In this document: piece after piece, positions 2,484 through 61,557 of the stretch
How positions within the stretch are numbered: position 1 is the stretch's first letter
Layout of the letters: every line of letters begins with the position of its first letter
Origin: a virus
Reading direction: 5' to 3' (one strand)
IMG/VR virus record: IMGVR_UViG_3300028008_001363
Location: 35,857 to 99,856 of that record
DNA length: 64,000 nucleotides
Notes under the pieces: model-generated
Told to the model about the DNA's origin: nothing
The model's input: only the letters and a program-made list of their open reading frames with translations
Database searches by the model: none
Position numbers and translations under genes: made by a program

Positions 2484-3694
2484 TGAGACTAGATGAATTA
2501 GATAAGAAAATCACACAGTCTGACTTGGATGCATTAGAAGTATTCGCTGATAGAATATTTGGCAAAGTTGGTATTGATGTAGAATTTACACGTCACTTCT
2601 TAGACAGAGTAAACGATGACCGTAACGGTGAGCAAATTACTGGTAGTGAACTAACACGTCTATTCAAACAAGAATACAAACGTTGGGGTAAGCCAATCGC
2701 ACAGATGGGTCCAGATGCTGAAGCAGTAATGAAAGATTTACAGACAGATATCAATATGCCATTTGCATTAAGATGGGATAGAGATAACAATGAATTAGAT
2801 TTGATTGTTAAAACTGTTATGCGTAAGAAAGACTTTAAAACATCTAACAAAGAATTCCCAGTAGAATCAATAGAAGAAAGTCCTTCAGTAATGTCATCAC
2901 AACAAATGTTGACAAAACTATCAAAAGAAATGCAAGGCACACATACGGGCGCAATGAACCCAAACTCTGATTGGTCAAAGTTTGTTCTATCTCATAAAGG
3001 ATTTACACTTAAAGATGTACAAGTTGACCAGATACCAACAGCCGTTAACAATGACGGAATGAGTCAGGCTAATATTGAAAAATATAAACAAGCAGATTTA
3101 TCAAAATTCCCACCTATGGTAATAGGCAACGACGGATATATATTAGATGGTAATCATAGACTTCAAGCATATAAGGCACAGGGCATTAAAACAGTCAAAG
3201 CCTACATAGGCGAAGAATCTGAGATTTGGCAGTGGAACAAAGAAGACCCTAATAATCCTGAAGTATACATTCAAGGATATGGCAGACTTATGCTTAATCA
3301 AATAGAAGACAGTATAGTTGGCAAACTTAAAGAACTTACTAAGATGGCAGAACGAGGCGACTTTGAACAAATACAAAGTCTATTAGATAGAGATGTTTTA
3401 CAATTAATGATGAAATCAGTCGTTGATACAAAAGCAGAACTACAATCAACTCGTAAAAGAGGTGGACCAAAATCTCGTGGTATTAATAAAGAATCTATAT
3501 TTGATGCATTAGAAGATGATATGGCAGAAAAGTTCGATGCCGTAAAAAAGAGTGTAACAGAGTATGGTGTGGGTAAAGTCGTACCAGGAATTAATACTAC
3601 TGTTGATGTTGGACCTAACGAAATTAAGAAACAAGCCGCTAAGTTCGGTAATAAAGTCAGTAAAGACGGGTTACCTAAGAAAAATTTACGATAA
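2483..3694 (+). CDS. Modular protein with ParB/Srx-like domain; putative processed head protein
   Basis: FPPMVI...YILDGNHRLQA is the ParB/Srx signature; N-terminus MRLDE; junctions PVE-S, IEE-S, IGE-E, VTE-Y. TAATG coupling to the upstream gene. Confidence 0.6.
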   Translation: MRLDELDKKITQSDLDALEVFADRIFGKVGIDVEFTRHFLDRVNDDRNGEQITGSELTRLFKQEYKRWGKPIAQMGPDAEAVMKDLQTDINMPFALRWDRDNNELDLIVKTVMRKKDFKTSNKEFPVESIEESPSVMSSQQMLTKLSKEMQGTHTGAMNPNSDWSKFVLSHKGFTLKDVQVDQIPTAVNNDGMSQANIEKYKQADLSKFPPMVIGNDGYILDGNHRLQAYKAQGIKTVKAYIGEESEIWQWNKEDPNNPEVYIQGYGRLMLNQIEDSIVGKLKELTKMAERGDFEQIQSLLDRDVLQLMMKSVVDTKAELQSTRKRGGPKSRGINKESIFDALEDDMAEKFDAVKKSVTEYGVGKVVPGINTTVDVGPNEIKKQAAKFGNKVSKDGLPKKNLR

Positions 3695-3705
3695 AAGGCT
3701 CACAA

Positions 3706-4935
3706 GTGTATAACAAAGATACCATGTGTTATAAAACTTGGAATGATATTATCATATCGTTACCCAAGAAAACAGTTAGTTGGTGTTGTAAGACAAACTT
3801 AACTGAACAACAAACAAAAGAAACTACATTTGATTTAGATATCTTAAACAATAAAGGTATAGATTTTCTTTTCAATCATCCAATTCTTCAAAAGAGAAAA
3901 AAAGAACTAGCAACTGGTATAAGATGTGCAGATTGTCACGTATGTTGGGAATCAGAAGATAGGTCTGGAGAAAGTCATAGAACATTATATACTAATCATT
4001 CTGTTGAATTTGATTATGATACGCCTGCTACCTTTATTGAACTTGAACTGACAAACAAGTGTAATTTAGCCTGTGTATACTGTGGACCACAACTTAGTTC
4101 GAGGTGGCAAAAAGAATTAAAACAACGACATCCTGATACTGAAGATGAAATATTTCATAAAGTAATGGATTTACTGGCTGAGTATTTCAATACCAAACTA
4201 ACAAATAAACCATATATCAATATCAGTCTATTAGGTGGTGAGCCTTTCTTTACTGACCACATGTATGTATTCCTAGAATACCTTTCAAAATTCCATGTAA
4301 AATCTGAACAAGAAGTAACAGTTACAATCACAACTGGCATGGCTTTTCCTGAAAAGAAATTTACGAAATTTATTGAGTTAATTGAACGTACTCCTAACAT
4401 AATATATATTATGCAGTTATCTGGAGAAGCAATTGATAAGAGAGCAGAACTAATTCGATGGGGTCTAAACTTTGAAACGTGGGACAATAACTTAGATATG
4501 TTCTTAACAGAGTCAGCAAGATTGAAGAATTTAGTTATAGGATTTGGTTGTGCCCATAATGCCTTATCTCTGCCGTATTTCAAAGACTTTCTTGTATACA
4601 TTAATAAAAAACTGGCAAAACATGAATACAAATCTGTTGTGTGGTTTTTAATCAACTATATAGAAGACCCACAGCACTTATCCATATCAATGCTAAATAA
4701 TTATCATGCAGATGCTGTAACAGAGCAGATAGAATATATGGAGAATGAAATGACCAATCTTTATAAGAAAGATGAGTATATTACTATGCTGAGGTCACTC
4801 AGAAATCAAATTTTGAATGCGAATGTCACTACAGAGATGAAGCAAAATGCTTCAGATGAATTTAAAAGATTAGAAAATAGACGAAATATATCATTCAAAT
4901 CTGAATTCCCGCACTTCGATGAACTAGTTAAATGA
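3706..4935 (+). CDS. Radical SAM protein with N-terminal Cys-rich (twitch-like) domain
   Basis: CNLACVYC (CxxxCxxC), LLGGEPF, N-terminal C..WCC..CADCHVC; GTG start. Confidence 0.9.
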   Translation: MYNKDTMCYKTWNDIIISLPKKTVSWCCKTNLTEQQTKETTFDLDILNNKGIDFLFNHPILQKRKKELATGIRCADCHVCWESEDRSGESHRTLYTNHSVEFDYDTPATFIELELTNKCNLACVYCGPQLSSRWQKELKQRHPDTEDEIFHKVMDLLAEYFNTKLTNKPYINISLLGGEPFFTDHMYVFLEYLSKFHVKSEQEVTVTITTGMAFPEKKFTKFIELIERTPNIIYIMQLSGEAIDKRAELIRWGLNFETWDNNLDMFLTESARLKNLVIGFGCAHNALSLPYFKDFLVYINKKLAKHEYKSVVWFLINYIEDPQHLSISMLNNYHADAVTEQIEYMENEMTNLYKKDEYITMLRSLRNQILNANVTTEMKQNASDEFKRLENRRNISFKSEFPHFDELVK

Positions 4936-12813: not shown

Positions 12814-13896
12814 ATGAACAACTATATTTTTACAAGCGAAAGTGTAAGCGATGGACATCCAGATAAAGTTTCTGACCAGATTAGTGATGCATTAGTTGAT
12901 GCAGGACTAAAGAATGGCGATGAAACTACTCGTGTTGCTATCGAAACACTTGTAACCACTAACCACGTAACGGTAGCGGGTGAAGTAAAGAACTTTAACG
13001 TAGATAATGTAAAAGATATTATACGAGATAAAGTTAAAGAAATTGGCTATGAACAAGAAGGATTTCATTGGGATAATTTAAATATCTATAATGAAATACA
13101 TTCACAATCAGGTGATATTGGATTAGGTACTGATGACTTTGGTGCAGGTGACCAAGGCATTATGTTTGGCTATGCAACTAATGAAAACGATGCAATGCTA
13201 CCAGCACCAATTTACTATTCACATGAAATTCTAAAGAAACTAAAAGAACTTAGATTAGATGGATATGATTTCTTACTTCCAGATGCTAAGTCTCAAGTAA
13301 GTATTCAGTATGTTGGTGGTCGTGTTCAACGAGCAGACCAAATTGTAGTAAGTACACAACATAAACAGGGCTTTATGCATAGTCTTAAAGCACCAGTGAA
13401 AGAAGCAGTCAATAGTGTAATGGGAGATTTAATAGATGACAATACTAAATGGCATATCAATCCTACAGGCAATTTTGTCATTGGTGGTCCTGATGGTGAT
13501 ACAGGACTCACCGGGCGTAAGATTATCGTTGATACTTATGGTGGCTATGCTCCCCATGGTGGTGGTGCTTTTAGTGGAAAAGACCCCACAAAAGTCGACC
13601 GAAGTGCCGCCTATATGGCACGGTGGTTAGCAAAGAATGTTGTAGCAGACAATATGGCAGATTGGTGTCAAATTCAATTGTCATATGCTATTGGTGTAAA
13701 AGAACCAACAAGTATCTATATAGATAGTAATGGACACAACAGAACTATTCAAAAGTTTATCGAAGAAAACATTGACCTAACACCAAAGGGTATCATTGAT
13801 AGATTTGATTTATTCAAGTTTTATGGTTATAGTGAAAACTGTATCTACGGACACTTTGGCAACAAAGATGTACCATGGGAAAAGATTGGATGGTAA
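12814..13896 (+). CDS. metK: S-adenosylmethionine synthetase
   Basis: FTSESVSDGHPDK, GAGDQG, GGGAFSGKDPTKVDRS signatures. Confidence 0.98.
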   Translation: MNNYIFTSESVSDGHPDKVSDQISDALVDAGLKNGDETTRVAIETLVTTNHVTVAGEVKNFNVDNVKDIIRDKVKEIGYEQEGFHWDNLNIYNEIHSQSGDIGLGTDDFGAGDQGIMFGYATNENDAMLPAPIYYSHEILKKLKELRLDGYDFLLPDAKSQVSIQYVGGRVQRADQIVVSTQHKQGFMHSLKAPVKEAVNSVMGDLIDDNTKWHINPTGNFVIGGPDGDTGLTGRKIIVDTYGGYAPHGGGAFSGKDPTKVDRSAAYMARWLAKNVVADNMADWCQIQLSYAIGVKEPTSIYIDSNGHNRTIQKFIEENIDLTPKGIIDRFDLFKFYGYSENCIYGHFGNKDVPWEKIGW

Positions 13897-13917
13897 CAAT
13901 TGAAAAGGAGAAATATT

Positions 13918-14385
13918 ATGGCAAAGACACTTAATCCAAATTCATGGTTTGGCACGCCAGAAGAAAAAGAACGAGCGATTGCTAGGCGCATCACCGATGA
14001 AAAAGAACAAGCAATTGCACTAGAAGAAATCAATTTCAAGTATGGTCATACAGACCAACATACTTACGACAAGAACATGGCTACACATAAAGGTGAACAG
14101 TATGTTCGAGTTATTGGTATGGAATTAGACAAAGATAAACCAGGACAAGGTTTCTTTGAGTTAGATTTCAACGACCAATTCGTAGAATATCTTGCACAGA
14201 ATGGCTATGAAGGTTTAGAACAAGAACAAATCGTTGATAATTGGTTCAATGATTTATGTAAGAACATTGTACTAAATGATTTAGAAGACGAAGAAGGCAT
14301 TAGAAGAAGCGTAATGTCTGATAGCAAAGATGGACTAATCATTAGTAAAGTCAAAACTGACAAGGATACTTCAGAATATTATTAA
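13918..14385 (+). CDS. Hypothetical phage protein
   Basis: ATG 13918 follows an AGGAG RBS (preferred to the track start 13900); no recognised motif. Confidence 0.6.
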   Translation: MAKTLNPNSWFGTPEEKERAIARRITDEKEQAIALEEINFKYGHTDQHTYDKNMATHKGEQYVRVIGMELDKDKPGQGFFELDFNDQFVEYLAQNGYEGLEQEQIVDNWFNDLCKNIVLNDLEDEEGIRRSVMSDSKDGLIISKVKTDKDTSEYY

Positions 14386-33973: not shown

Positions 33974-34294
33974 ATGATAAAAGAGAGCGTAATAATCACA
34001 CCACATACTGATAAAGCATATGATTCAGTGGATGCATTTTATAGTGAAAATGACTATGATAGTTACAGAGACCACTTCAGAACATTCTTGGCTGACAAGG
34101 GCGTTGACATTGATGATGAAGCAGTATATATGACTGCATTAGTTGATGGCGATTCTAAAGTCAAAATAACAATAGCATTCGCAGATGAGGCTCAACTTGA
34201 TGAGTGTAGTGAGAGTGACGATTATTTTGCTATGTTGGCAATGGAACACACAATGCCTGCATCAGAAGATACAACTACTGTACACTTATTCTAA
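33974..34294 (+). CDS. Acidic hypothetical late protein
   Basis: 106 aa, Asp-rich; late box and RBS; converges on the minus-strand block. Confidence 0.65.
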   Translation: MIKESVIITPHTDKAYDSVDAFYSENDYDSYRDHFRTFLADKGVDIDDEAVYMTALVDGDSKVKITIAFADEAQLDECSESDDYFAMLAMEHTMPASEDTTTVHLF

Positions 34295-34295
34295 A

Positions 34296-34916
34296 TCAAA
34301 CAGTATTATGCCTATTCCAGGTATGATATGATTTCTTTGTACTACCGTCTTTGGGCGGTAGACAAAATACCATGTGAAATCTAAGATGCTCACCTGCATT
34401 TAAGGCAGTATGTCTCTTAGTTGTGTCTACCATGTAGGTAGTACTCTCATGTAACTTTTCAGTCTTATCATCTATTATCATAAAACATCCATCATTCGTT
34501 ATCAATGGTAAATGAATTCTAGGTGTTTCATCATAGTGATATGTTAAGCATGATTTCCAGTTCATCATCATATATCTACCACGAACTGCTCCATACTCTT
34601 TAAAAATAGTATTGATTACTTCTTCAGTGTATGTGCCTTTTAAGTAATCACAAACTTCTGAAAAATCTTCTTCTTGTAATATTACATCACGTACTTTAGG
34701 TTTTGAATTAGGGTCAGAGGCATCATGGTAGTCATAATCTACATATAAACTAAGAGTACCTTTTAGTCTTTGTTCTTCTTCTGGCGTACCTGACATAGTT
34801 TGAAGCATCATCTGACCATTATTCTTAATCAAAAATTTCTCAATATTCATATCATTGAATTCTTTTCTAAGTTTATCATAGTCGATATTTAATTCTAATT
34901 CAGTAACATTACTCAT
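34296..34916 (-). CDS. Asp/Asn beta-hydroxylase-like 2OG-Fe(II) cupin
   Basis: HYD...RIHLPLITN...HTALN...RFHMVF. Confidence 0.75.
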   Translation of the reverse strand: MSNVTELELNIDYDKLRKEFNDMNIEKFLIKNNGQMMLQTMSGTPEEEQRLKGTLSLYVDYDYHDASDPNSKPKVRDVILQEEDFSEVCDYLKGTYTEEVINTIFKEYGAVRGRYMMMNWKSCLTYHYDETPRIHLPLITNDGCFMIIDDKTEKLHESTTYMVDTTKRHTALNAGEHLRFHMVFCLPPKDGSTKKSYHTWNRHNTV

Positions 34917-34920
34917 GTCA

Positions 34921-35829
34921 TTATTCCTTATCCAATTCTAATTGTATAGCATTCTGTATTTCATCTGTTATACAAATTTTGTTTCCCTTTTCATCATGGA
35001 CCCACATCCATATTTCTAATGCAGTATATCCTGGATGGTCGTTAACATATTCTTCTTGTATCATCTTTGCTGGTGCAGTTACATATAATGGTCCAAACTT
35101 TGGTAAGATTGCGTTTGCCACAGTTACTGCATTGATATTATAATAGTTATAGTTCATTAGTTTACTTATAGGAATAGTTAAACTTGGTGCTATATCATTA
35201 CCAAACAATATTCCTGCTCTTATTCCACCCAACAGAAAAGACTTACTAAGACTGAATGCTACACAATCTATAACGGGATTCTCAACATTCATAGTTTCTA
35301 AAGACGTTCCATAGAATGCACAGTCCAAGAATATCTTACTATTTGTTCTCTCGCATTGCTTTATTAGTTCAGGAAACCACGTTGAAATACTTCCTGTATG
35401 ATTAGGTTGACTAATGATTATGTAACTGTTTTCTTCTATCGTCTCTAGGTCCGTATGGTGGATACACTCCGCCGTATATGGAGACAATAAAGCAGTATAA
35501 AACATATAGTCATCATTGAAGTAATAAAACTTGTTAACTGTTTTAGATTTGTATGCAACTTGATTAACTATGGCATCATGGATTCCATTACAAAATGCCC
35601 ATTCACTAAACTTATCTACACCAGAAAATCTATATGTCCAATTTAACCAGTTAGCATGATAGTCATCTAGTTCATCAGATGAACCTTTGTTCTTCATATG
35701 CAAACTGTCTAATACTTTTCTGACCTGATTTGGACAAAAACTATGTACTGAACCTTCAGGTGAAAGTGTCGATGCTGGATACTTTCCTCTTTCTAATAAG
35801 TACATTGTGTATGAGTTCGCTAACACCAT
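34921..35829 (-). CDS. PLP-dependent fold-type I enzyme (aminotransferase-like)
   Basis: ISQPN, IFLDCAFYG, FSLSKSF...GIRAG (PLP Lys). Confidence 0.75.
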   Translation of the reverse strand: MVLANSYTMYLLERGKYPASTLSPEGSVHSFCPNQVRKVLDSLHMKNKGSSDELDDYHANWLNWTYRFSGVDKFSEWAFCNGIHDAIVNQVAYKSKTVNKFYYFNDDYMFYTALLSPYTAECIHHTDLETIEENSYIIISQPNHTGSISTWFPELIKQCERTNSKIFLDCAFYGTSLETMNVENPVIDCVAFSLSKSFLLGGIRAGILFGNDIAPSLTIPISKLMNYNYYNINAVTVANAILPKFGPLYVTAPAKMIQEEYVNDHPGYTALEIWMWVHDEKGNKICITDEIQNAIQLELDKE

Positions 35830-36425
35830 ATATTCTCAATAATATGACAGTACATACTCAATCGTTGTTCGTCAGGACCTATACACATATCTGGGTTTCC
35901 ATGTAATTGTGTTTTGTTATTAATCATCATATATCCTGTGTTTTGAATACAATCAAATTGATGTCTAACTTTTGGTATTGGGCCCTCACCATCTTTGTAG
36001 TAGTATTTTTGAAGTGTGTCTTTTTCGTATATTTCACTTTCATCTACATCAAAAAATATAGTCGGAGAACTATCATTATTTGTTAGATAGAGTTGCATAA
36101 CCTTATCAACTTTTGAATTATCGATATGTCTTGTTATGGAAAATCCCTCTAAGTCTAACCAAAACGCCGGCCATATTGATTCTATTTTCATTTGTAGTAC
36201 TTCTTCTAAAATACTTTTTTTAGAATTAATATGTTTTTCTATACGTTCAAAAACACTATGGGGTTCAACTATAATACATCTTCTATTCTTTTGTTCCTGG
36301 GTTTTTTGAGGTTCCCATGGCATATCCATTAGATTTAATTGTGAAAGTTCATGTATTAATTCTTCTGATACTGCATCTTTTATTGCAAACAGATTATTTA
36401 AATCATCTATTGGTCTTATATTCAT
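35820..36425 (-). CDS. 2OG-Fe(II) oxygenase-like protein
   Basis: FWLDLEGFSITRHIDN (HxD), QLYL, LHG, RLS; paralog of 62714-63334. Confidence 0.75.
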   Translation of the reverse strand: MNIRPIDDLNNLFAIKDAVSEELIHELSQLNLMDMPWEPQKTQEQKNRRCIIVEPHSVFERIEKHINSKKSILEEVLQMKIESIWPAFWLDLEGFSITRHIDNSKVDKVMQLYLTNNDSSPTIFFDVDESEIYEKDTLQKYYYKDGEGPIPKVRHQFDCIQNTGYMMINNKTQLHGNPDMCIGPDEQRLSMYCHIIENIWC

Positions 36426-36458
36426 TTGTCTTTCCTTTCATAATGAATAATTTAATAG

Positions 36459-36614
36459 TCACTTCTTAATCTTCTGTTCTGTATATTTACAATGCTTTCG
36501 TATATACGGGTCATACATATTCAACGTCATCTTTTCTGGATGTAGTCTTTTATTTTTATGTCGTGTATAAAAATGTGCTGACTCTGTTGATTGCATTCTT
36601 ATTTTTTCTCGCAT
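36459..36614 (-). CDS. rpmG: 50S ribosomal protein bL33 (51 aa; not in ORF track)
   Basis: Hand translation [51 protein letters not shown] aligns with L33 (REKI..S...HFYT..KNKR..PEK.....DP..R.H..Y.E.KIK); AAGGA RBS. Confidence 0.88.
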
Positions 36615-36623
36615 AGTTTCCTT

Positions 36624-36842
36624 CTATTTTTTACAGTTACACGAACCACTTTTCGCACCTACATAACCAGCAACAATACCAATTATACCAGTGATACTCA
36701 TCTGGAGTAGTTCTATAATATTCGAGTCTAACTCACCGCCATTTTCTCTAGCCATCATAAACTCATCTACAACAATAAGTCCTAGAATACCCATCAAACT
36801 TATTGCCATTACTAGAACAATAATTCCTTTAATATTTTCCAT
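36624..36842 (-). CDS. Small two-TM membrane protein
   Basis: Two hydrophobic helices; start reassigned to MENIKG (36842). Confidence 0.6.
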   Translation of the reverse strand: MENIKGIIVLVMAISLMGILGLIVVDEFMMARENGGELDSNIIELLQMSITGIIGIVAGYVGAKSGSCNCKK

Positions 36843-36843
36843 T

Positions 36844-36963
36844 TTATCTCCTACGAATAGCATCATGGAATTTAACCATCTTTTCCAATGCTTCTACTCG
36901 TTCAGTTAATCGCCCAATTTCCTCTAACAGTTCTTTGACTGTCTTCTCTAATTCATCTGCCAT
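36844..36963 (-). CDS. 39-aa coiled-coil peptide (not in ORF track)
   Basis: MADELEKTVKELLEEIGRLTERVEALEKMVKFHDAIRRR fills the gap exactly between neighbours. Confidence 0.55.
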   Translation of the reverse strand: MADELEKTVKELLEEIGRLTERVEALEKMVKFHDAIRRR

Positions 36964-36966
36964 ATA

Positions 36967-37188
36967 CTATTTTTTAGTTGTTAATTTTTTCTTTACAGTC
37001 TTTGCCTTCTTAGTAGCCTTTGGTTGCACCTCCTTAATAGGCTTCTTAGTAATTGCTTTCTCTGTACTCTTATTTAGTTTCTTTCCTTTACCAGATAGAT
37101 ATGCTGGTGCTTTATTTTCACCTCTGTATGTTGCAGGGTCTACTCCTTTTCCAAAGAATAGTTCTGTCAATGAAGGTAGTTTTAACAT
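36967..37188 (-). CDS. Lys-rich small protein
   Basis: Start MLKLPS (37188) after AGGAG; histone-H1-like K/T/A tail. Confidence 0.6.
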   Translation of the reverse strand: MLKLPSLTELFFGKGVDPATYRGENKAPAYLSGKGKKLNKSTEKAITKKPIKEVQPKATKKAKTVKKKLTTKK

Positions 37189-37189
37189 G

Positions 37190-38368
37190 TTACTTCTCCT
37201 TTTTAAATGATTTATCACCTGGATATATGGGTACCATTGCTCCAGGTTTACGTTTTGGTATCTTACTGTCTGCACTACTTACACAACTTTCACTAATACA
37301 AACTCTTGGTTTATCAAATAGTTTAAAGCCACTCTCTACATACCCTAATGGTTCGTCCGCACAACTGTATGAACGTTTTATACTGCCATCTGGTTCTCTA
37401 ATAATGATACCTTTAAACCCACTTGTACATTCCCAGCCCTTAAACTTATTAAAGTTAAAAGCATTGAAACGTTCTGCTTGGTCCATGTACCATTTCTTTC
37501 CTTTACTGTCTTGGAATTCTACTTGCATTTGGTGTGGCACTGATTTGTCATCACCATTTATCGCATCCATTCTCCACATACTACCTGATTTAGGTTTTGG
37601 TCTTACTACTTTTATGCCAGTTTCTTCTTGTAGTTTAGATGTGAAGTCTCTTTGTGGCATGCCTTTACGCATTGTTTTTAATTGTTCGTCTGTGTAACCA
37701 GATACTACGAAAGATGCAGTTGGGTCACTCTGAGGTTTTAATGTAACATTTATACCACGATTGTGAAAGTATAATGCTCTTTCCCAGTCTCGGTCAAACC
37801 ATTCAGGAACAAGAACCATGTTGATTGTTACGTGTACATCATGTTCCATACAGTACAATAACTTATCAGCAAACTCTTCTTCTTTCGCATACTCACTATG
37901 GAATGATGCTGTGATACTTGCTCGGTGCATTTTTGCAACTGTTTTGCAATAGGTTTCATGCCACTTCATATTACGTGACATGTTAGTTGTCATATGAACA
38001 GAAGTATAATTAGTATTATCCACATCTCCAGCGAGGTGATTGAGGATGTCCAAATAGCCAGGATGAAAAGTAGGTTCACCACCAGATAAAGAAAAGTGAA
38101 AAGAGTTAAATCCATTTTGTCTTGCTTGCCTTTTTATTTCGTCTATCGTTGCTAGACATAGTTCAGTTGGTCTGTGGTCTTTACGGTCACTTCTAGCATA
38201 CGGCCAACAGTACGAACACTTGTAGTTGCAGAAACGTCCTAATAACCAACTTACTGAAAATAAATCTCTATATAAAAGGGTTCGTTGTCCTACACTAACG
38301 AGGTCATCGAATGGTATTTCTGTGAAGTCATATTGTGACCAATATAATTCGTCTGTTTTATCACTCAT
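37190..38368 (-). CDS. Radical SAM protein with C-terminal Cys domain
   Basis: WLLGRFCNYKCSYC, SGGEPT, FKGWECTSG...SC...CISESC. Confidence 0.92.
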   Translation of the reverse strand: MSDKTDELYWSQYDFTEIPFDDLVSVGQRTLLYRDLFSVSWLLGRFCNYKCSYCWPYARSDRKDHRPTELCLATIDEIKRQARQNGFNSFHFSLSGGEPTFHPGYLDILNHLAGDVDNTNYTSVHMTTNMSRNMKWHETYCKTVAKMHRASITASFHSEYAKEEEFADKLLYCMEHDVHVTINMVLVPEWFDRDWERALYFHNRGINVTLKPQSDPTASFVVSGYTDEQLKTMRKGMPQRDFTSKLQEETGIKVVRPKPKSGSMWRMDAINGDDKSVPHQMQVEFQDSKGKKWYMDQAERFNAFNFNKFKGWECTSGFKGIIIREPDGSIKRSYSCADEPLGYVESGFKLFDKPRVCISESCVSSADSKIPKRKPGAMVPIYPGDKSFKKEK

Positions 38369-39344
38369 GTATGAAGTCTCTCCAATTAGTTCCGTGTATT
38401 TTGTCCATTATTTCACTTTGTTCTATCAACTGTTCTCTTAGTAATTTATCTTCCATCGCATCTGGCGACATAAACGCAGGTCGTATAACTGGTGTCGATG
38501 AGAAACAATCAATGTTATTATCATTGCACCAACCTAATATTTCATGCATATGCTTGTGATTAAAAACCATAGGCAAAACTGATACTGTCACATAAGAATT
38601 ACTTGGTTTTAATTTATTGAACTTCACAAGGTTTTCACTCGTTTGTTTCCAACTTGAACCTGGTCGTATATACTCATAGCGTTTGCCTATTGCTTCAATA
38701 CTCACATTTATCTGTATTCTTCTAAACTTCTCAAACAAATGATTCCAGTCTGTCATATCATAACTTCCATTTGTTATCAATTGTACTTCAATATTAGAAG
38801 AAACTCCTTCGTCTATTAGTCTTTGTATAATCTTTTTTACTTGTGGTATCATAAATGGTTCACCACCTGTAAACTTTATAATCTTTGCATCTAACATAAG
38901 ATGACTAAACTCTAATGCTTTTTTTGTCCAACGTGTCTTTGGTTCTTCGTGTCTTGCTTCGTATCCGTACCAATTATATTCTTTATTATCTCTTATGAGA
39001 TTTGCCCATTTACTACTACTTCCTGGATGACACATTCGACAAGCAAAGTTACAAGTATTGTTTATCTTTAAATCCCAATGCTTAATACCAGTTTCACCTT
39101 TGAACTGGTCATTGTATGTTGTTCGTAAACTTCTACCTGTTAGTTCTTCACTTAGTTTACACTCAGCACATCCATCTAGCCATTCTGTCTCACTTTGCTT
39201 ACCCCATTCAGCATGTCTTGTTTGCCAATCATCATCAAAATATAATAGTTCTTCATCGGGTTTTGACAACCATGCACAACAGGGTCTTATAGTAGACGTG
39301 GTATCTATTACTACACCATGTTTAAATATTGCACATTCTGGCAT
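38361..39344 (-). CDS. Radical SAM protein, N-terminal twitch type
   Basis: RPCC, CAEC, CNFACRMC, TGGEPF. Confidence 0.92.
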   Translation of the reverse strand: MPECAIFKHGVVIDTTSTIRPCCAWLSKPDEELLYFDDDWQTRHAEWGKQSETEWLDGCAECKLSEELTGRSLRTTYNDQFKGETGIKHWDLKINNTCNFACRMCHPGSSSKWANLIRDNKEYNWYGYEARHEEPKTRWTKKALEFSHLMLDAKIIKFTGGEPFMIPQVKKIIQRLIDEGVSSNIEVQLITNGSYDMTDWNHLFEKFRRIQINVSIEAIGKRYEYIRPGSSWKQTSENLVKFNKLKPSNSYVTVSVLPMVFNHKHMHEILGWCNDNNIDCFSSTPVIRPAFMSPDAMEDKLLREQLIEQSEIMDKIHGTNWRDFIHE

Positions 39345-39353
39345 TACTGTTTC

Positions 39354-39710
39354 CTACTTATGGCTCATCCCACATGGCTCATCAAATCTAACATTGAAGA
39401 AACGTTGCTTGGTTCTATAAGCCTTCTCAACTATTTCATAATCTATTCCAACTGTATTTAACACAGTTTTAATATCTTCTCTGTCTTCCTCTGCCATTTC
39501 TTCACGTACATTATCTCTAATGTCTTGTTCTACCATATCATATATACTACTAAAACACCACTCACAAAATGTAACTGGCATCACACCAAAGAGTCCTTGA
39601 ATTCCACCACACGATTCATCATATTCATCGTTACAAATAGAACATTTTGGTTTTGGTTTAGATGTTTGCAATTCACGTATGTAGTCATTCGCTGTTCTTT
39701 TTTTCATCAT
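39354..39710 (-). CDS. Zinc-finger hypothetical protein
   Basis: CSIC...FCEWC. Confidence 0.6.
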   Translation of the reverse strand: MMKKRTANDYIRELQTSKPKPKCSICNDEYDESCGGIQGLFGVMPVTFCEWCFSSIYDMVEQDIRDNVREEMAEEDREDIKTVLNTVGIDYEIVEKAYRTKQRFFNVRFDEPCGMSHK

Positions 39711-39843
39711 CCTTCCTATTCTTTAAAACAATATGTATATACCATTTCATTAACCATTCAACTTTCCTAGGGTATTGGTCTGGATTAGGTATCTTATCTT
39801 CTCCAAAGTAATCAATAAATCCTTGTATATCTTCATCACTCAT
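39685..39843 (-). CDS. 52-aa hypothetical protein (not in ORF track)
   Basis: MSDEDIQGFIDYFGEDKIPNPDQYPRKVEWLMKWYIHIVLKNRKDDEKKNSE; ATGA overlap with the upstream stop. Confidence 0.6.
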   Translation of the reverse strand: MSDEDIQGFIDYFGEDKIPNPDQYPRKVEWLMKWYIHIVLKNRKDDEKKNSE

Positions 39844-40163
39844 AATGGAATATCCCTATTCTCTTTAGCACAGTGTGATTGACAAACTTCTAGTTTACTC
39901 ATATTGTTTTCAATCCACTCAAAGATTGGACCTTCTATAATCTCTTCCATAGAATAATGATGTATGTTATGATACTTCTTATCTATACCAGATTCATTCC
40001 AAAGTCCAGTCATTCTTCTTGTAATGCCAAACCAACAACAAGGCAGTACATATCCTTTTGATGTGATATAAAGATTGCCCATTGTTTTATGAAATGTTCC
40101 TTGTCCATTTCCAACAGCCGCTTTACACTTTGGTTGTATCTCAAAAGTTTTGTTCCAAGTCAT
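39840..40163 (-). CDS. Stand-alone SPASM/twitch Fe-S domain
   Basis: PKC...LYITSKGYVLPCCW...VCQSHC; matches the C-terminus of 50998-52101. Confidence 0.8.
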   Translation of the reverse strand: MTWNKTFEIQPKCKAAVGNGQGTFHKTMGNLYITSKGYVLPCCWFGITRRMTGLWNESGIDKKYHNIHHYSMEEIIEGPIFEWIENNMSKLEVCQSHCAKENRDIPL

Positions 40164-40876
40164 ACTAAGCCCTCGATTCCTACATAACCTTCTGGTAATA
40201 CAATCTCATCTATTTCATTTGCAGGGTCTGTGTTTCTAAAAGACTTAATCACCACAAATCTATCAAAGTTCTCATCTTCAGATAGTTTCTTAATGTCACT
40301 TATCTGATGCTGATTCCATTTGAATACAATAAACTGCCACATCGCTTTGCCACCTGAAGAGATATATGCTCTCCAGTTCTTTTGTAAAGTATTCCAATCA
40401 ACATTCTTTCTATAAAGATGATTGGTTTCTTCATCTCCGTCTATTCCGAATACAACTACTAAACGGTTGTTTAATTCTTTAGATAATTCTCCTAACTCAC
40501 TCCAGAAACTTTCATTTCTTGACCCACCATTCACGTGAACCCAAATGTCTTTTTCTTTATTGTCCAGGTGATAGAAATACTTTATGATTTCTATTACATC
40601 TGGATTTATTACTGGTTCATCTAAGTTGCCACACAAGACTACTTCGTCTAAGTGTGACCATCTATCAGGCAGAAATGTCTTCTTTATATCTGCTACTGAT
40701 AGATAGGTATTATTCAGTTCAACATCGTAATCTAAAGTAAACGTATCTCGTTCTTCAGTCTTTTCATTCTGAAGTTTAACAAGATAACTTCGTTCACACT
40801 GTGGACAAAAGGCATTACAATAGTTTGTTATTTCTAACTGTAAACGTCCTATATTGCCTTCGGTTGCCCACAACAT
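40160..40876 (-). CDS. Radical SAM core domain lacking its C-terminal Cys domain
   Basis: EITNYCNAFCPQC, CGNLDEP, FGIDG, WQFIVFKWNQHQ. Confidence 0.88.
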   Translation of the reverse strand: MLWATEGNIGRLQLEITNYCNAFCPQCERSYLVKLQNEKTEERDTFTLDYDVELNNTYLSVADIKKTFLPDRWSHLDEVVLCGNLDEPVINPDVIEIIKYFYHLDNKEKDIWVHVNGGSRNESFWSELGELSKELNNRLVVVFGIDGDEETNHLYRKNVDWNTLQKNWRAYISSGGKAMWQFIVFKWNQHQISDIKKLSEDENFDRFVVIKSFRNTDPANEIDEIVLPEGYVGIEGLV

Positions 40877-60511: not shown

Positions 60512-60841
60512 TTAGTCCTTCTTCATAGTGAATGATTCGCCACATCCACAAGTATCACCTGCTAGTGGGTTTTCAAACTGAAAGCCACCATTGATGCCTT
60601 CTTGTTTGTAATCTAATTGAGTACCATCAATCATTATTAATGATTTGGTGTCTACGATAATAGTAACACCTTTGTCTTCAAATACATTATCACCTTCGTC
60701 TATTTGGTCAGCGAATTCAATGCCATATGCGAAGCCTGAACAACCTGTTGTTGTAACCTTTACTCTAATTCCTATGCCTTTACCTCTATTTTCTAAGAAG
60801 TTGTTTACTCTGTTGGCACCCTCTTCGGTTATTGTTAACAT
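60512..60841 (-). CDS. iscA: A-type Fe-S carrier
   Basis: TGCSG and CGCGESF motifs. Confidence 0.95.
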   Translation of the reverse strand: MLTITEEGANRVNNFLENRGKGIGIRVKVTTTGCSGFAYGIEFADQIDEGDNVFEDKGVTIIVDTKSLIMIDGTQLDYKQEGINGGFQFENPLAGDTCGCGESFTMKKD

Positions 60842-61179: not shown

Positions 61180-61557
61180 TTAATCTTGTTTCTTTTGATA
61201 GTCAGCGATTGCCGATTTGATTGCATCTTCGGCTAGAACTGAGCAGTGAATTTTAACAGGCGGTAATGCCAATTCTTCTACAATATCCATATTCTGTATG
61301 GCTTCTGCTTCTTCTAATGTCATTCCTTTTACCCATTCTGTGAGTAAACTACTACTTGCAATTGCCGAACCACAACCATATGTTTTAAACTTTGCATCTG
61401 TAATTATACCTTCTTCAATCATAATTTGAAGTTTCATTACGTCTCCACATGCTGGTGCTCCTACCATACCTGTTCCAACTTTGGGGTCGTTCATATCCAT
61501 TTTACCTACATTTCGTGGGTTTTCATAATGGTCTAACACTTTGTCTGAATAAGCCAT
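61180..61557 (-). CDS. iscU: Fe-S scaffold protein
   Basis: DHYENPRNVG, APACGD, GCGSAIAS, LPPVKIHC. Confidence 0.97.
   Translation of the reverse strand: MAYSDKVLDHYENPRNVGKMDMNDPKVGTGMVGAPACGDVMKLQIMIEEGIITDAKFKTYGCGSAIASSSLLTEWVKGMTLEEAEAIQNMDIVEELALPPVKIHCSVLAEDAIKSAIADYQKKQD

Follow-up and report, generated by a model that had tools for sequence, protein, structure and literature searches.

A phage-encoded, zinc-free ribosomal protein bL33 from a widespread marine viral clade

Virus-encoded ribosomal proteins bear on the extent to which phages take over the translation machinery of the cell. A 51-residue reading frame in a marine viral genome fragment raises this question in a compact form. 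Is it a real gene for the ribosomal protein bL33, does it belong to the phage, and would its product work in the ribosome of the host? The frame lies in a stretch of 64,000 nucleotides (positions 35,857 to 99,856 of the IMG/VR record IMGVR_UViG_3300028008_001363), here called the window. A first-pass annotation, made from the letters alone, had described it as a hidden, divergent and zinc-free bL33 that would replace the host protein. Here, we describe the gene, the viral clade to which it belongs and the explanations that can be offered for its presence in a phage.

A bL33 gene in a marine phage genome

The reading frame starts with ATG, ends with TGA and lies on the minus strand (Table 1). 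It scores 42.9 bits against the Pfam family Ribosomal_L33 (PF00471; E 6.5e-11), where the cut-off is 25 bits, and the match covers the whole profile (1-47 of 47). The NCBIfam equivalog rpmG_bact (TIGR01023) gives 46.4 bits against a cut-off of 23.95, and the subfamily NF001860 gives 52.1 bits against a cut-off of 50. When PDB sequences were searched with phmmer, only bL33 chains were matched (best E 2.4e-12), with about 51% identity to the proteins of E. coli, Pseudomonas and Acinetobacter; PHROGs holds no family for the phage protein. With both sets of curated cut-offs exceeded and bL33 as the only PDB match, the homology proposed in the first-pass annotation is borne out. The word divergent is too strong for a protein that passes every curated threshold, keeps 17 near-invariant residues and is 51-64% identical to cellular bL33. 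The word hidden holds for the reading-frame track used in that annotation and not beyond it, since JGI already names some members of the protein-database cluster of close relatives (76-100% identity to the phage protein) "large subunit ribosomal protein L33".

No CxxC pair is present in the 51 residues, so the protein falls outside the zinc-binding (C-plus) subtype and into the C-minus subtype. Its sole cysteine, C42, occupies a column that holds valine in 73 of 73 bacterial relatives. The zinc-free character was therefore recognised correctly, though its significance was overstated, because this is the usual condition of gammaproteobacterial bL33. The AlphaFold2 model, built from a 45-sequence alignment, has a pLDDT of 91.3 and four strands (residues 3-9, 15-20, 30-35 and 40-47). 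The top 15 Foldseek matches to this model are all bL33 chains of bacterial ribosomes (TM 0.85-0.94, rmsd 0.6-1.1 Å), and the ribosome-bound proteins of E. coli and Acinetobacter superimpose on it with TM 0.92-0.94 and rmsd 0.7 Å. According to the predicted structure, the phage protein has the four-stranded, zinc-ribbon-derived fold of ribosomal bL33.

The record that carries the gene is a 99,856-base IMG/VR fragment of an uncultured marine phage, for which CheckV estimates a completeness of 26%. It encodes a family B DNA polymerase of the T4 type (phrog_262, E 5e-189), together with a DNA ligase, a Clp-type ATPase, a tail-fibre-like protein and six tRNAs. The polymerase shares 48% identity with its counterpart in the Agrobacterium jumbo phage Atu_ph07 and 42% with the polymerases of CBB, GAP32 and related phages of 350-380 kb, a kinship that fits a genome of several hundred kb. 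The record is a genuine phage genome, from a marine relative of the Atu_ph07- and Rak2-like jumbo phages. Five of its tRNA genes (Leu-TAA, Met, Ser with anticodon ACT, Arg-TCT and Pro-TGG) are clustered at record positions 13179-14010, 22 kb before the start of the window, and a tRNA-Glu gene lies further upstream at 3692-3766.

The bL33 gene sits within a long, co-oriented block on the minus strand. Upstream are three small reading frames and two radical SAM genes on the same strand, in agreement with the neighbourhood first described, and downstream are a 201-residue reading frame, an aminotransferase-like gene and an Asp/Arg-hydroxylase-like gene. An AAGGA sequence, a putative Shine-Dalgarno element, lies 4 nt ahead of the bL33 ATG, in the spacer that begins after the TAG of the preceding 80-residue frame. 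This 80-residue frame has no Pfam or PHROG match; a homologue with 72% identity occupies the same place in the viral contig L003. The small basic frame that follows the radical SAM gene is likewise without a Pfam or PHROG family, and it has homologues (50-92% identity) in contigs L002-L005 and L098. It may also be read as 102 residues from a GTG at 37275, the choice of start being provisional. The radical SAM enzyme nearer to bL33 is 88-99% identical in the syntenic viral contigs. Further downstream the order is more variable: the 201-residue frame is missing from L002 and L004, where the next gene directly follows bL33, and the aminotransferase-like gene is syntenic in L002, L004, L005 and L098.

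Genes for bL28 (PF00830), bS21 and bL31 were not found on the 99.9-kb fragment, so it has no canonical rpmB-rpmG pair, which agrees with the earlier remark that rpmB is missing. IscU and IscA genes are present in the window as had been reported, 24 kb away from bL33. A scan of positions 34000-40500 gave promoter-like and terminator-like sites at the level of chance (for sigma-70 promoters 29 sites, with 29.4 expected; for terminators 2 sites, with 2.2 expected).

Table 1. Features around the bL33 gene and related features in other viral contigs. Positions are those of the window unless a contig is named.
Feature	Position	Strand	Basis or remark
bL33 (rpmG-like) gene, 51 aa, zinc-free (C-minus)	36459..36614	-	ORF, Pfam/NCBIfam, PDB, AF2, dN/dS
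Spacer, 9 nt, with Shine-Dalgarno-like AAGGA	36615..36623	-	Read from the sequence; putative function
80-aa ORF, two hydrophobic stretches, predicted small membrane protein	36624..36866	-	ORF; upstream of bL33
Small basic ORF, Lys-rich tail, directly after radical SAM gene	36967..37188	-	73 aa from internal ATG
Radical SAM enzyme	37190..38368	-	PF04055, 53.5 bits; upstream in co-oriented block
Radical SAM enzyme	38361..39344	-	PF04055, 51.5 bits; upstream in co-oriented block
201-aa ORF downstream of bL33, function unassigned	35820..36425	-	ORF
Aminotransferase-like gene	34921..35829	-	PF00155, weak, 19.9 bits against cut-off 19.7
IscU	61186-61554
IscA	60536-60838
IscA homologue directly before bL33	L101:3665-3991
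IscA and IscU homologues near bL33	L105:1659-2912
Partner ORF (79-aa family)	L098:3760-3999, L103:3749-3991, L104:3757-3996, L107:3786-3992		Also in L097, L099, L006, L007 and L102
Partner ORF in L100	L100:2605-2838		1.2 kb upstream of bL33

One viral clade and its cellular relatives

Close relatives of the gene are carried by 15 IMG/VR contigs from more than 10 samples, and one variant in the protein-database cluster is found on 258 contigs. Four of the viral contigs are syntenic with the window; their bL33 proteins are 98-100% identical to that of the phage, and the neighbouring proteins are 66-96% identical. Between the closest contigs there are 8-12 synonymous differences and 0-1 non-synonymous differences in bL33, which gives an omega of 0-0.02 by the Nei-Gojobori method, and across the whole viral clade omega is 0.03-0.25. 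Thus, the viral bL33 is held under strong purifying selection.

The gene has not stayed in one place. In L103 and L104, it comes about 1.4 kb after the DNA polymerase gene. It directly follows an IscA homologue in L101, is within 2.5 kb of IscA and IscU homologues in L105, follows a carbamoyltransferase-like gene in L100, and is located inside a module of baseplate and prohead-protease genes in L007. Together with the radical SAM block of the window, the viral clade occupies at least five distinct gene neighbourhoods. In a maximum-likelihood tree of 98 sequences, the 17 viral proteins all fall on one side of a single branch (support 100/97, recovered in 100% of bootstrap trees), and the stem of this clade measures 0.79 substitutions per site. 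With an alignment of only 51 columns, the tree gives the viral clade no firm sister group and brings long branches together, and it names no donor. The viral bL33 proteins are one monophyletic clade, which has long been retained under purifying selection despite relocation.

Two further observations concern the DNA at and before the start of the gene. The first 31 bases of the coding sequence (36584-36614, minus strand, compared with the corresponding part of L002-L007) are identical in all close relatives and differ by one base in the lineage whose protein is 76% identical, while synonymous changes build up downstream. This may reflect a constraint on the start of translation, or simply A-rich codons. 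In several members of the clade, a conserved reading frame of 68-80 residues is found near the gene. This family, typified by a 79-residue member, belongs to no known family, has a hydrophobic C-terminal anchor and contains the motifs VGDV, IEFI and VYAAVLWI. In three different gene neighbourhoods, it ends 1-9 nt ahead of the bL33 ATG; in L100 it stands further away (Table 1). It is not found in the record of the window, in L002-L005, or in L101, L105 and L106, and the 80-residue frame upstream of bL33 in the window is unrelated to it. The partner frame and bL33 may form a two-gene cassette.

Among cellular proteins, the 80 best named genomic matches all come from Gammaproteobacteria in the GTDB sense (51-63% identity), including Alcanivorax, Woeseiaceae, Steroidobacteraceae, SAR86, Cellvibrionaceae, Pasteurellaceae and Burkholderiales, in a list that is somewhat biased because gamma-type sequences were the seeds of the underlying pattern scan. 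In 400 evenly sampled Pseudomonadota genomes, which include one unpublished genome (G386) outside the best matches, the highest identity was 62%, and the closest cellular bL33 overall is 64% identical. The nearest cellular homologues are all free of cysteine, and a ten-residue motif of the phage protein is also found in Alcanivorax, Woeseiaceae and some marine MAGs. The proteobacterial flavour noted earlier, here of the gamma/beta style, is supported by these 80 matches and by the polymerase, whose closest cultured phages infect Proteobacteria. From its sequence type, bL33 gives a weak clue to a gammaproteobacterial host.

The likeness to the gammaproteobacterial protein (PDB codes: 4ybb, 7unr, 6v39) extends to the length class, the MREKI-type start, the lack of zinc ligands and the fold (TM 0.92-0.94). 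Common residues are H14, Y16, K20, N21, R23, P26, D35, P36, H41, Y44, E46 and K48-I49-K50. When 73 bacterial bL33 proteins were compared with the 17 viral ones, 17 positions with a conservation of 90% or more among the bacteria proved to be shared, and every one of them is retained in at least 90% of the viral proteins. Seven bacterial positions of the same conservation are replaced throughout the viral clade: L7M, A11E, T12S, G13A, T18 (to R, C or F), K45 (to T or N) and an extra K51. The viral clade differs from the gammaproteobacterial protein in L7M, T18R/C, K45T/N and the additional C-terminal lysine, at an overall identity of 51-64%. The first loop reads ES-A in the phage, whereas bacteria have AGTG; it is one residue shorter in the viral clade, and the G between the replaced residues is lost. 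A loop of this length, of the STES-x-H type, also occurs in Thiomicrorhabdus, the genome G170, a Legionellaceae MAG and Rickettsiella, and so it is not unique to the virus. The substitutions quoted in the first-pass annotation are real, both YTRHKN for YTTTKN and the second, 12-residue string given there. In contrast to gammaproteobacterial rpmG, the gene is phage-encoded and is without an rpmB partner on the fragment.

Function in the host ribosome and other explanations

We favor the view that the phage gene is functional and encodes a ribosomal bL33 of the zinc-free kind seen in Gammaproteobacteria, which probably serves as a component of the ribosome in the host. Cellular bL33 is non-essential, assembles late, is exposed to solvent and can be exchanged between ribosomes. 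The phage protein would be made during infection from the co-oriented operon and would be built into the 50S subunits of the host at the site of bL33, next to the E site, as its retained core residues and the known loose binding and exchangeability of bL33 suggest. Once host gene expression has been shut down, it could top up or replace the host bL33, and the purifying selection on the viral gene makes replacement plausible. The remodelled first loop and the surface formed by R18/H19, T45 and K51 might tune the behaviour of the E site for phage translation.

The same clade-wide replacements and shortened loop could equally reflect a function off the ribosome. The protein would then have kept the bL33 fold and would act as a small basic RNA-binding protein, or as a decoy that titrates a host factor. 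Candidate targets would be factors that normally read the bL33 or E-site surface, among them ABCF or EF-P-type factors, hibernation factors and defence sensors. The concentration of clade-specific changes in the first loop and at positions 18/19, 30, 45 and 51, the long stem of the clade (0.79 substitutions per site) and the recurrent, non-obligatory 79-residue tail-anchored partner in several clade members are consistent with such a role. However, the protein retains the shared invariant residues of bacterial bL33, for which binding to the same rRNA site is the simplest explanation, and the model fits ribosome-bound bL33 at an rmsd of 0.7 Å. We know of no role of bL33 off the ribosome. We therefore regard this explanation as unlikely.

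Function in the ribosome could also be taken further than we propose. The viral loop and the changes at 18/19, 45 and 51 might make phage-specialised ribosomes, in which the release of E-site tRNA or the access of factors to the E site is altered, and in several lineages this might be done jointly with the 79-residue tail-anchored protein as a two-gene cassette. This is a speculative proposal, and we consider it quite unlikely as it stands.

Zur-regulated C-minus paralogues of ribosomal proteins are the back-up proteins of bacteria in zinc starvation. By analogy, a zinc-free bL33 might keep translation going in zinc-poor seawater, or might free zinc from a zinc-binding host bL33. Like these paralogues, the phage protein is zinc-free and belongs to a family that also has zinc-binding versions. 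It lacks CxxC and comes from a marine habitat, and bL31 and bL33, the two classic zinc-switch proteins, are enriched in aquatic viruses (Mizuno et al. 2019, Nat Commun 10:752, PMC6375957). However, the nearest cellular homologues (Gammaproteobacteria, 51-64% identity) are all zinc-free. In contrast to the Zur-regulated paralogues, the closest cellular relatives of the phage protein have the zinc-free form only, with no zinc-binding counterpart in evidence, so the likely type of host has no zinc-binding bL33 to displace. Zinc economy is thus very improbable, and we reject it as the main explanation.

Finally, the gene might be a passenger or an artefact, whether a functionless gene taken recently from a host, a chimera of the assembly or bacterial DNA in the viral bin. 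Small ribosomal genes are at times acquired by chance, and the matches among cultured phages (see below) resemble bacterial sequence in phage-labelled records. However, 15 independent IMG/VR contigs, which come from more than 10 samples, carry the gene, and one variant recurs on 258 contigs. Its synteny with phage genes has been preserved, the most similar cellular sequence reaches just 64% identity and dN/dS is far below 1. This explanation can be set aside with near certainty.

A bL33 inside the host ribosome thus remains our preferred reading. The present case adds a well-delimited and widespread marine clade, with about 15 viral contigs and one variant on 258 metagenome contigs. Its clear clade-specific surface changes make it a good candidate for demonstrating a viral bL33 inside a ribosome.

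Earlier reports and occurrence in marine samples

Virus-borne bL33 in aquatic viruses is already known, and the gene described here is a further case that leaves the picture of 2019 unchanged. Mizuno et al. 2019 (PMC6375957) described 12 contigs of uncultivated viruses, all from aquatic sources, that carry bL33 with a pN/pS of 0.09, and proposed that the viral copies replace exchangeable host ribosomal proteins. As cited there, bL33 is loosely bound, solvent-accessible and exchangeable, contacts the E-site tRNA and is dispensable in E. coli. For two of their bL33 contigs, a k-mer comparison pointed to Alphaproteobacteria as hosts. The two data sets are alike in that Ribosomal_L33 is encoded on uncultivated aquatic viral contigs of the IMG/VR type and is under purifying selection; the pN/pS of 0.09 there compares with an omega of 0-0.25 in the present clade. 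The explanation put forward is shared as well, an exchangeable surface protein that would take the place of the host copy. The sample numbers of the IMG/VR contigs of our clade were not found in the portion of the supplements of that paper available to us (PMC6375957). The kinship of the polymerase to jumbo phages, the single origin across gene neighbourhoods, the shortened loop, the clade-specific substitutions and the recurrent 79-residue partner frame may be additional to that work.

Other large phages also carry bL33. The jumbo cyanophage PhiMa05 has it among six ribosomal proteins that are thought to derive from Vampirovibrio-like hosts (PMC13157829), and L33 has been reported in soil huge phages (PMC11748809). 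In contrast to PhiMa05, bL33 is the only one found on the present fragment. The bL33 of PhiMa05 was not recovered when cultured phages were searched by tblastn with the present bL33 as query, and so represents a separate acquisition. This search returned 8 records with 51-56% identity, which we do not accept as true phage bL33 genes, since they look bacterial (Salmonella WGS contigs and tiny fragments). Phage-labelled records that carry a bacterial-type rpmG at identical scores include the Campylobacter phages A11a and A18a, contigs of about 220 kb named "Acinetobacter phage MD-2021a" and Salmonella WGS contigs, and these are probably bacterial sequence. A megablast search with 15 kb around bL33 gave no match among cultured phages.

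In environmental data, the 6-kb stretch around bL33 is found nearly identical in marine and seawater runs from about 18 studies. The gene is covered by contigs from four marine metatranscriptome libraries, although such contigs can derive from DNA, and one RNA-library contig of 1950 bases spans bL33 and both of its neighbours without a difference. These contigs are compatible with expression of the region, with DNA carry-over also possible, and gaps in their coverage carry no meaning. At 36489, a variant in the population alters a third codon position of bL33 and is synonymous. In four runs from four studies, the RNA-library contigs break at the same two places (38838-38878) and continue into other sequence; these shared breaks lie inside the more distant radical SAM gene and suggest a common population variant or a replaced segment.
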